Positions 16,635 to 17,810 of a DNA stretch of 64,000 nt are shown piece after piece. The DNA comes from an uncultured Clostridia bacterium (GTDB lineage: Bacteria > Bacillota > Clostridia > TANB77 > CAG-508): NCBI GenBank assembly GCA_934129895.1, contig CAKOWY010000008.1, forward strand, positions 298 through 64,297, read 5' to 3'. Position 1 is the stretch's first letter; each line of letters starts with the position of its first letter. The notes under the pieces were generated by a model. That model saw nothing but the letters and a program-made list of their open reading frames with translations, was not told the origin of the DNA and did no database searches. Position numbers and translations under genes: made by a program.

Positions 16635-17810
16635 ATGCAAAAGTCAAAAAAAGCAACAATAATAATTATTATTACTATGCTTGTATATGGATTTTTTGCT
16701 ACATTTAAATTAATAAAAGAAATAAATATTTTGTATTTGTATATTATAAATCCATTATTTTGGTTATTGCTTGCTGGTTTTCTATATTTGACTTTAGGAA
16801 AAAGTATAGAAAACAAAAAAATGAAAAAATCAATAATACAATATACAATAGTCGCAATTTTAACATATATACTTATTTATATGATTTCTGGAATAGTAGT
16901 TACATTTGGAAAGAATCCTTATGACACTACAGTTTTTGGAATTATTACAAATATTTGGATGTTTGGAGTAGCAATTGTATCAAAAGAATATATAAGATAT
17001 AAATTAATAGATAATGTATATGAAAAAGATAAAACAACAATATCTATATTGATATCAATTGTATATGTAACGATTGATATAGATATTAGCAGATTCATTG
17101 GAAATAGTGTTGCAACATATTCTTGCATAAGATATATTGTGCAAAATATACTGCCAGAAATTACAACTAATGTTGTATTTTCTTATACCGCTAGATATGG
17201 AAATTGGATACCAGGAGTATTATATAAATTATGTACAAATATATATTATTGGATATCACCAATAATTCCAAATACACCATGGGTAATGACAGCAATTGTA
17301 GATACAACTATTCCAGTAATATTGTTTTTATATATAAGATATGAAAAAAATAAATTAGATATATTTAGAACTAAAGAGAATATTATAAATTCAGATCCAA
17401 GAAATGTAATTCCACTAGTAATTGCAATAATTCTTGCAATTTGGTTTGCAATAGGGATATTTCCTATAAAACCAGTTGCAATAGCTTCTGGAAGTATGGA
17501 AAAAGAATTATATGTAGGAGATATTGCTATAATAAAAAAATGTAATGCCAATGATGTTAATGTTGGTGATATTATAGAATATCAAATGGATGGATATACA
17601 GTAATACATAGAATTATAGAAAAGAAACAAAAAAATGGAGAATTCTTATTTATAACAAAAGGGGATAATAATCAGATGGCAGATAGTGAAAACGTAAAAG
17701 AAAAACAATTAATAGGTAAGGTAATTTTTAAAATAAAATACCTTGGATATCCAGCTATATGGTTACATCTTATTCAAGAAGAAGAGGCAATGGTAAATGT
17801 TGAAACATAA
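16635..17810 (+). CDS. sipW: Type-I signal peptidase of the SipW (archaeal/eukaryotic) type, fused to a ~270-aa N-terminal polytopic membrane domain
   Basis: C-terminal part IASGSMEKELYVGDIAII...GDIIEY...ITKGDNN matches the SipW catalytic SGSME box. The N-terminal 270 aa carry about seven hydrophobic helices. Confidence 0.65.
   Translation: MQKSKKATIIIIITMLVYGFFATFKLIKEINILYLYIINPLFWLLLAGFLYLTLGKSIENKKMKKSIIQYTIVAILTYILIYMISGIVVTFGKNPYDTTVFGIITNIWMFGVAIVSKEYIRYKLIDNVYEKDKTTISILISIVYVTIDIDISRFIGNSVATYSCIRYIVQNILPEITTNVVFSYTARYGNWIPGVLYKLCTNIYYWISPIIPNTPWVMTAIVDTTIPVILFLYIRYEKNKLDIFRTKENIINSDPRNVIPLVIAIILAIWFAIGIFPIKPVAIASGSMEKELYVGDIAIIKKCNANDVNVGDIIEYQMDGYTVIHRIIEKKQKNGEFLFITKGDNNQMADSENVKEKQLIGKVIFKIKYLGYPAIWLHLIQEEEAMVNVET

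Follow-up and report, generated by a model that had tools for sequence, protein, structure and literature searches.

TasA-superfamily fibres are among the main protein scaffolds of bacterial and archaeal biofilms, and the closest described relatives of the system considered here are the abpX loci, presented in a preprint on AbpX of Pyrodictium abyssi (Sleutel et al. 2026, 10.64898/2026.01.04.697558). According to that preprint, the type I signal peptidase (SPase I) linked to AbpX has ten transmembrane (TM) helices, and DUF5305 proteins are putative SPase accessory subunits that recall those of the eukaryotic complex. Loci of bacteria are described there as holding a signal peptidase (SPI), AbpX, minor subunits and an accessory protein; that of Clostridium amylolyticum has two minor subunits. 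The SPases named include A0A1M6GRN4, A0A2R7Y7S8 and WP_338249487.1. Here, we analysed a 64,000-nucleotide stretch of DNA from an uncultured Clostridia bacterium (contig CAKOWY010000008.1, positions 298 to 64,297; hereafter the window), in which one gene encodes an SPase I preceded by a module of eight TM helices (Table 1). The locus is very probably an AbpX-type (TasA-superfamily) fibre operon and the gene its dedicated SPase I. As a clostridial instance of this recently noted kind of system, it illustrates a basic fact that is already in the literature: the ten-helix architecture had been noticed in one sentence of the preprint and in its predicted models, where the eight-TM module itself was not analysed. 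A preliminary description of this DNA had considered the architecture undescribed, which holds for the module, present in no catalogued family, and not for the ten-helix peptidase. As in the abpX loci, which are found in Bacillota, Chloroflexota and archaea, ten TM helices are combined with a TIGR02228-type domain, and an AbpX-like major subunit, a minor subunit and a DUF5305 protein are encoded nearby. Unlike in those loci, the major subunit has Ser instead of Asp/Glu at mature position 4, and the operon shows neither an SLH, LPXTG or other anchor gene nor kinase or c-di-GMP genes.

Three other systems help to place the enzyme. Bacillus subtilis SipW, encoded in tapA-sipW-tasA, is also a Ser-His SPase I of the archaeal/endoplasmic reticulum (ER) type with a C-terminal TM helix; a TasA-superfamily fibre subunit is encoded beside it and A-F follows the cleavage junction. 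However, SipW has only ~190 amino acids (aa) and two TM helices, whereas the window peptidase carries eight more helices and is partnered by a DUF5305 protein, not by TapA. In the haloarchaeal Tafi system, TafD was shown experimentally to be needed for pilin processing, and the DUF5305 protein TafG has been proposed as its helper (PMC11821415, PMC12337348). As in the window, donor-strand subunits are encoded together with a DUF5305 protein and an SPase I dedicated to them, but TafD differs by its four TM helices and its immunoglobulin (Ig)-like domain at the C-terminus, is devoid of the eight-TM module and acts on substrates of the Tat pathway. Finally, the eukaryotic signal peptidase complex (SPC; SEC11A/C with SPCS1-3; 7p2p and 7p2q) also builds a multi-helix membrane assembly round a single-anchor catalytic subunit. 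Its extra helices belong to separate small subunits without detectable sequence similarity, while the eight helices of the window protein are fused in cis, and the comparison is an analogy of function only.

The peptidase gene is preceded by an AGGA-type ribosome-binding site 5' of its ATG, and the N-terminus 'MQKSK' is kept in homologues. Residues 258-377 match TIGR02228 (sigpep_I_arch) at 99.5 bits (1.7e-28; cut-off 51.85), and the C-terminal part matches PF10502 at 27.6 bits. The score against the Bacillus SipW equivalog NF046067 (61.1 bits) falls short of the cut-off of 190, so that the protein is an archaeal/ER-type SPase I and no SipW orthologue, contrary to the identity first assigned to it. 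In an AlphaFold2 model based on a 38-sequence alignment (mean predicted local distance difference test score, pLDDT, 78; predicted TM score, pTM, 0.65), an anchor helix covers residues 259-275, a beta-rich domain comes next and residues 372-390 form the last helix, which gives ten TM helices in total (8+1+1). The extracytoplasmic S26B catalytic domain spans residues 276-371 and contains Ser287 (17493-17495), His325 (17607-17609), Asp344 and Asp350. Conservation was measured over 113 diverse family members (alignment A5), which are 22-43% identical to the window protein and all match TIGR02228. In this set, S287 and H325 are conserved at 99% and M288, R326, G343, D344 and D350 at 100%. The general base of this S-M / GDN...D peptidase is a His and not a Lys, as expected for S26B. 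The best matches of the model in the Protein Data Bank (PDB) by Foldseek are human SEC11A and SEC11C (7p2p_A, 1.2e-5; 7p2q_A, 4.3e-5), and they concern the catalytic domain only. The Ser-His peptidase formed by the C-terminal domain, of the archaeal/ER type, is intact and predicted to face the outside of the cell.

The AlphaFold2 helices of the N-terminal module cover residues 5-23, 28-53, 61-88, 100-126, 130-148, 161-188, 192-207 and 216-241, of which only six are strongly hydrophobic in a hydropathy scan. The Lys/Arg-rich loops of the protein (1-4, 54-60 and 242-258) agree with an N-in topology in which the catalytic domain is external. Across the 113 sequences, E118 (16986-16988) is invariant; R121 (16995-16997), N106 and G86 reach 99%, P212 98%, P209 94%, P174 89% and Y184 88%. 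Besides R121 and N106, the near-invariant polar residues of the module are N179, T/S183 and Y184. E118 and R121 would be located in the cytoplasmic half of helix 4, as deduced from the AlphaFold2 helix boundaries. Two proline-rich outer loops are also kept, GFxxSPY (89-96) and PILPNxxW (209-216), both of which are modelled as short strands (91-93 and 210-212). Among residues 1-257 of the 113 members, neither a Cys nor a His is invariant, no Ser or Asp able to serve as nucleophile is conserved and there is no second conserved Glu. Since neither a nucleophile nor a His is conserved in it, the module is most likely not catalytic.

Searches for relatives of the module outside its own family were negative. 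Scans with Pfam and NCBIfam, including the exosortase and CPBP models proposed as a check in the preliminary description, found no model covering residues 1-257, and PHROG gave no match either. At E<=1, the peptidase models were the only ones in Pfam and NCBIfam that more than a handful of these 113 sequences had in common; exosortase, CPBP, rhomboid and prepilin-peptidase families were absent from the shared matches. A PDB sequence search with the module profile yielded noise only (E>=0.7), a Foldseek search of the PDB with the full model gave no match to the module, and hhalign comparisons of helices 1-4 with 5-8 and of helices 3-4 with 7-8 revealed no signal of an internal repeat. A family of ~1200 clusters at 50% identity, spread over two domains of life, is left without a Pfam or NCBIfam model and without a structural relative.

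The fusion of the two parts is real and widely conserved, and the module is almost always joined to a peptidase. Used alone as query, the module retrieved 754 proteins, the best 120 of which are nearly all ~393 aa long and carry PF10502. A 13-sequence module profile, scored against 1.84 billion cluster representatives (50%-identity clusters), found 1183 representatives at E<=0.001, among them 653 at E<=1e-10, and almost all of these proteins have 375-410 aa. With separate hidden Markov models (HMMs) for each half, both domains were detected in 354 of the 388 proteins retrieved, and the other 34 are mostly truncated or frameshifted open reading frames (ORFs). Relatives named signal peptidase I come from Clostridia, Dehalococcoidia/Chloroflexota, Bathyarchaeia and Archaeoglobales, and the fusion is the rule. 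The preliminary description thus reported a true observation, which is confirmed here, and its interpretation is partly supported. The extra polytopic domain exists, but as eight helices and ~257 aa in the AlphaFold2 model, not as the ~7 helices and ~270 aa first counted. The view that this region could be a separate upstream gene or a frameshift product fails, as the frame is open and the fusion recurs in hundreds of clusters. The Cys and Arg residues that had looked conserved in YSCIRY and SYTARYGNW vary: C164 is a Cys in only 3 of 38 close relatives and, in the diverse set, Cys is not one of the five commonest residues at this position; in place of R166 there is mostly a Lys, and in place of R187 mostly an Ile, Tyr or Leu. 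Only S/T183 and Y184 are conserved among the residues of these two motifs. In two archaeal ten-TM peptidases of the Bathyarchaeia type (P0301 and P0323), we also observed a hydrophobic C-terminal tail longer than in the clostridial proteins, which may add one or two TM helices.

The proteins encoded on both sides of the peptidase look like its substrates. The upstream product starts with a Lys-rich segment and a signal anchor (residues 1-25), and its predicted cleavage, ...IGYS|AFSSSLNISGTATG (the bar marks the site), would bare a donor strand. With a profile of its family (A4, 22 relatives), the best PDB matches are AbpX itself (9sj2_C, 1.1e-5; 9rhp_A, 1.3e-4). The aligned part of AbpX starts with residue 3, within the donor strand, so that F27 corresponds to AbpX W2 and cleavage is predicted between S25 and A26. 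The mature protein would have 163 aa, an isoelectric point of 4.45 and 13.5% Asp+Glu, and AlphaFold2 models the precursor as a signal helix and a seven-strand all-beta domain (pLDDT 87). The 209-aa product encoded after the DUF5305 gene has a similar signal anchor and donor strand (...STSYS|LWSTDLQINGTITT) and a different globular domain. Accordingly, its hhalign match to A4 (92.7% probability, 41 columns) is confined to signal and donor strand, and hmmsearch with A4 finds it at 9.3e-7. Both flanking proteins share a Lys-rich n-region, a long hydrophobic anchor and the junction '[YF]-[SA] | x-[FW]-S-x-x-L-x-I-x-G-T', which aligns with the mature AbpX N-terminus. Within the window, this signal and donor-strand motif is found in these two proteins only, and since both flank the peptidase gene, a role of the latter with dedicated substrates is plausible. 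The dedicated docking or sorting domain imagined in the preliminary description is to that extent credible as a substrate-handling device, and not as sorting of the exosortase kind.

Table 1. Coordinates of the features of the fibre locus and of the related archaeal ORFs (window positions unless another locus is named)
Feature	Position	Strand	Basis
Divergent 358-aa ORF, no family assignment	14770..15846	-	Position kept in related loci
Precursor (188 aa) of the AbpX-like major fibre subunit (TasA superfamily)	15984..16550	+	A4 profile against PDB
Terminator- or attenuator-like 16-bp hairpin with T-rich tract, between subunit and peptidase genes	16554..16588	+	Pattern scan
Peptidase gene	16635-17810	+	Single 391-aa ORF without internal stop
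Eight-TM module (residues 1-257)	16635..17405	+	AlphaFold2 helices, conservation in 113 sequences
SPase I part: anchor, S26B catalytic domain, C-terminal TM helix	17409..17804	+	TIGR02228, Foldseek
Membrane protein of 351 aa with DUF5305, proposed accessory subunit of the SPase I	17828..18883	+	PF17231, 7.8e-20
Second substrate, 209 aa, candidate minor/tip subunit	18894..19523	+	hhalign, hmmsearch with A4
Terminator-like hairpin closing the four-gene operon	19527..19547	+	Pattern scan
Module-substrate fusion ORF	L020 3929-5539		
Module-substrate fusion ORF	L024 10001-11479		

The organisation of the operon is conserved in relatives. The order orf358 (minus strand), subunit, peptidase, DUF5305, second subunit recurs over 18 loci of uncultured Clostridia whose peptidases are 48-67% identical. 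The peptidase gene is almost always adjacent to a DUF5305 gene, which lies directly 3' of it in all 18 related loci and also adjoins it around three distant family members (L021, L022 and L023), one of which (L022) encodes AbpX-type 'HWSE' subunits as well. A homologue of the second subunit is in place in 15 of the 17 loci long enough to show it and was not detected in L010 and L017. The divergent orf358 homologue, sometimes reduced to its C-terminal 152 aa, keeps its place and orientation in 17 of the 18 loci, the remaining one (L008) being too short to show it. The 358-aa protein has only sub-threshold matches in Pfam and NCBIfam and may be a regulator. Of 17 related loci, 15 (L001, L004-L007 and L009-L018) also have a stable hairpin, of another sequence, in the spacer between the subunit and peptidase genes; in the window, a pattern scan of 14700-19800 found 4 terminator-like sites against 0.4 expected. 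The spacer hairpin may be an attenuator through which the subunit is made in large excess over the machinery. The system belongs here to AT-rich Clostridia (27% G+C), and its closest relatives are uncultured metagenome-assembled genomes, several of them from human or animal gut.

A further hint on the module comes from three proteins of a small archaeal-type clade (P0233, P0256 and P0310) in which it is joined to a substrate-type C-terminal part in place of the peptidase. This part consists of a Lys-rich linker, a signal anchor, a cleavage motif with donor strand and then Ig/CARDB-like and/or dockerin domains, with the junctions AYP|YWTETLNIGG, AYS|HWTDTIDISG and AYS|IWQQNARITV. P0233 and P0256 are genuine continuous ORFs (Table 1), P0310 being known from its protein sequence alone, and no peptidase gene is found on the 6-kb and 17-kb contigs that bear the first two. 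The nearest relatives of the P0233 module are ordinary ten-helix peptidases (up to 58% identity). In all three fusions, the substrate anchor helix occupies the usual place of the peptidase anchor, which fits, without proving it, that the module handles such helices.

On these grounds, we propose the following scenario. The operon would provide, in this order, the major subunit, the hairpin, the ten-TM peptidase, the DUF5305 protein and the second subunit. The peptidase would cut the subunits at ...GYS|AFS... and ...SYS|LWS..., and cleavage would free their N-terminal donor strand for polymerisation by donor-strand complementation. The module would serve as a platform in the membrane, where a TM helix, probably the signal anchor of the subunit, is bound next to the active site. 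E118/R121, toward the cytoplasmic end of helix 4, could then meet the Lys-rich n-region of the substrate, while the two proline-rich outer loops would lie on the same side of the membrane as the catalytic domain. Together with the DUF5305 protein, the module would make a holoenzyme comparable to the eukaryotic SPC, which would confer specificity for fibre subunits and site cleavage where assembly happens. This putative docking-platform role is put forward tentatively, with rather less than even confidence. The explanation as a whole, a compromise between the identity of the locus and the role of the module, appears moderately probable.

Several observations weigh against this scenario. The place assigned to E118/R121 with respect to the active site and the anchor of the peptidase was derived solely from the helix boundaries. 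The SPases of the TasA and Tafi systems work without the module, which is hence not generally needed for cleavage. Concerning the locus, identity with the SPase family of the preprint rests on matching architecture, context and taxonomy. Foldseek of the major-subunit model lends weak support to a TasA-like jelly-roll fold, the TasA fibre 8aur_A standing at rank 40 with an E of 0.096 and a TMq of 0.40, although this TMq is the highest of the list. Finally, the acidic residue at mature position 4, typical of AbpX according to the preprint, is missing from the major subunit (Ser); this position has no consensus residue across the major-subunit family, and the second substrate has an Asp at position 5.

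A bolder version would see in the module a new assembly machine that couples cleavage to donor-strand insertion, i.e. a cis-fused 'polymerase platform' of Bacteria and Archaea, or a new intramembrane enzyme built on E118/R121. We regard it as rather unlikely. If true, the AbpX-type fibres thought of as 'chaperone-free' would have a dedicated assembly factor in vivo. The function of the module would more generally show how fibres are selected and assembled at the membrane and whether prokaryotes have built a cis-fused counterpart of the SPC. E118, R121 and the two outer loops form a short list of residues for mutation.

Among the alternatives, the module might anchor or nucleate the fibre, holding its first or last subunit at the membrane like an usher or TapA. 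The missing SLH, LPXTG or other anchor gene in the operon and the outer-face position of the proline-rich loops with their modelled short strands would suit this function. So would the place of Streptococcus pyogenes SipA, a peptidase homologue needed for pilus polymerisation, at Foldseek rank 10 for the catalytic domain. The archaeal fusions, which join the module straight to a donor strand and a dockerin or Ig-like domain, could be taken in the same sense, but the fused substrates keep a normal cleavage motif (AYP|YWTE, AYS|HWTD and AYS|IWQQ) and are therefore probably released. As AbpX moreover polymerises in vitro without a chaperone and nothing supports a contact of the module with the mature subunit, we consider this role of the module unlikely.

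A second alternative is that the module is itself an enzyme or a transporter, for instance an intramembrane glutamyl peptidase clearing the cleaved signal peptides, a transferase modifying the subunits or an ion pathway linked to calcium-dependent assembly. The membrane-embedded, invariant E118 and its (near-)invariant polar partners R121, N106, N179, T/S183 and Y184 would be compatible with such a centre, and the assembly of AbpX is calcium-dependent. However, the module has no conserved His, Cys, Ser or Asp and no second Glu, no Pfam or NCBIfam family of proteases, sortases or transporters is matched at E<=1 by more than one of the 113 members, and the internal repeat common in transporters is not seen. 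This makes a second activity quite improbable.

It is far less probable again that faulty annotation or assembly has created the fusion, or that the enzyme is merely the housekeeping signal peptidase of the cell. Gene calling can indeed produce false fusions in this family, as illustrated by P0251 (655 aa), an apparent triple fusion of subunit, module and peptidase that we rejected: in L021 (table 11), the call at 705-2672 runs through a stop codon that separates a subunit gene (705-1517) from the gene of a ten-TM peptidase (1521-2672). The window frame, on the contrary, is open throughout, the exact protein is recorded on 104 contigs, and the same length and architecture are kept in hundreds of clusters from two domains of life. 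As for housekeeping, the gene is tightly linked to fibre genes, and L011 (OV788638.1, a 1.55-Mb chromosome) encodes a separate, ordinary SipW-like peptidase of 189 aa just 3' of the operon (8973-9542), besides the ten-TM one.

Exosortases, archaeosortases and CPBP proteins are polytopic as well (~8 TM helices) and recognise a TM helix with a charged tail in dedicated substrates, whereas the module has no HMM match or conserved catalytic residues and the substrate signal in the window is N-terminal and predicted to be cut by the fused S26 domain. The catalytic set of exosortases and archaeosortases comprises a Cys, an Arg and a His/Arg, and the CPBP motifs are EExxxR, FxxxH and HxxxN. Despite its eight TM helices in a protein-sorting context and the superficial resemblance of the helix 4 E-x-x-R to EExxxR, a divergent sorting enzyme of these types is hardly credible, since the Cys/Arg/His set and the FxxxH and HxxxN motifs are all missing from the module, the Cys and Arg first pointed out vary, no sortase or CPBP model (PF09721, PF02517) is among the shared matches of the 113 members, and the exosortase/archaeosortase analogy drawn in the preliminary description is, without an invariant Cys or His, devoid of a catalytic basis.

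Some minor observations concern the surroundings of the locus. A plasmid origin was looked for by megablast and gave no match. A membrane-anchored polysaccharide deacetylase (PF01522, 2.3e-28) is encoded at 13994-14752 (+), just 5' of the fibre locus, and was not detected in the related loci examined. The window as a whole has a G+C content of 26.9%, and its sole Rfam matches are a SAM riboswitch at 26867-26968 (76 bits) and a T-box leader at 63725-63948 (95 bits).

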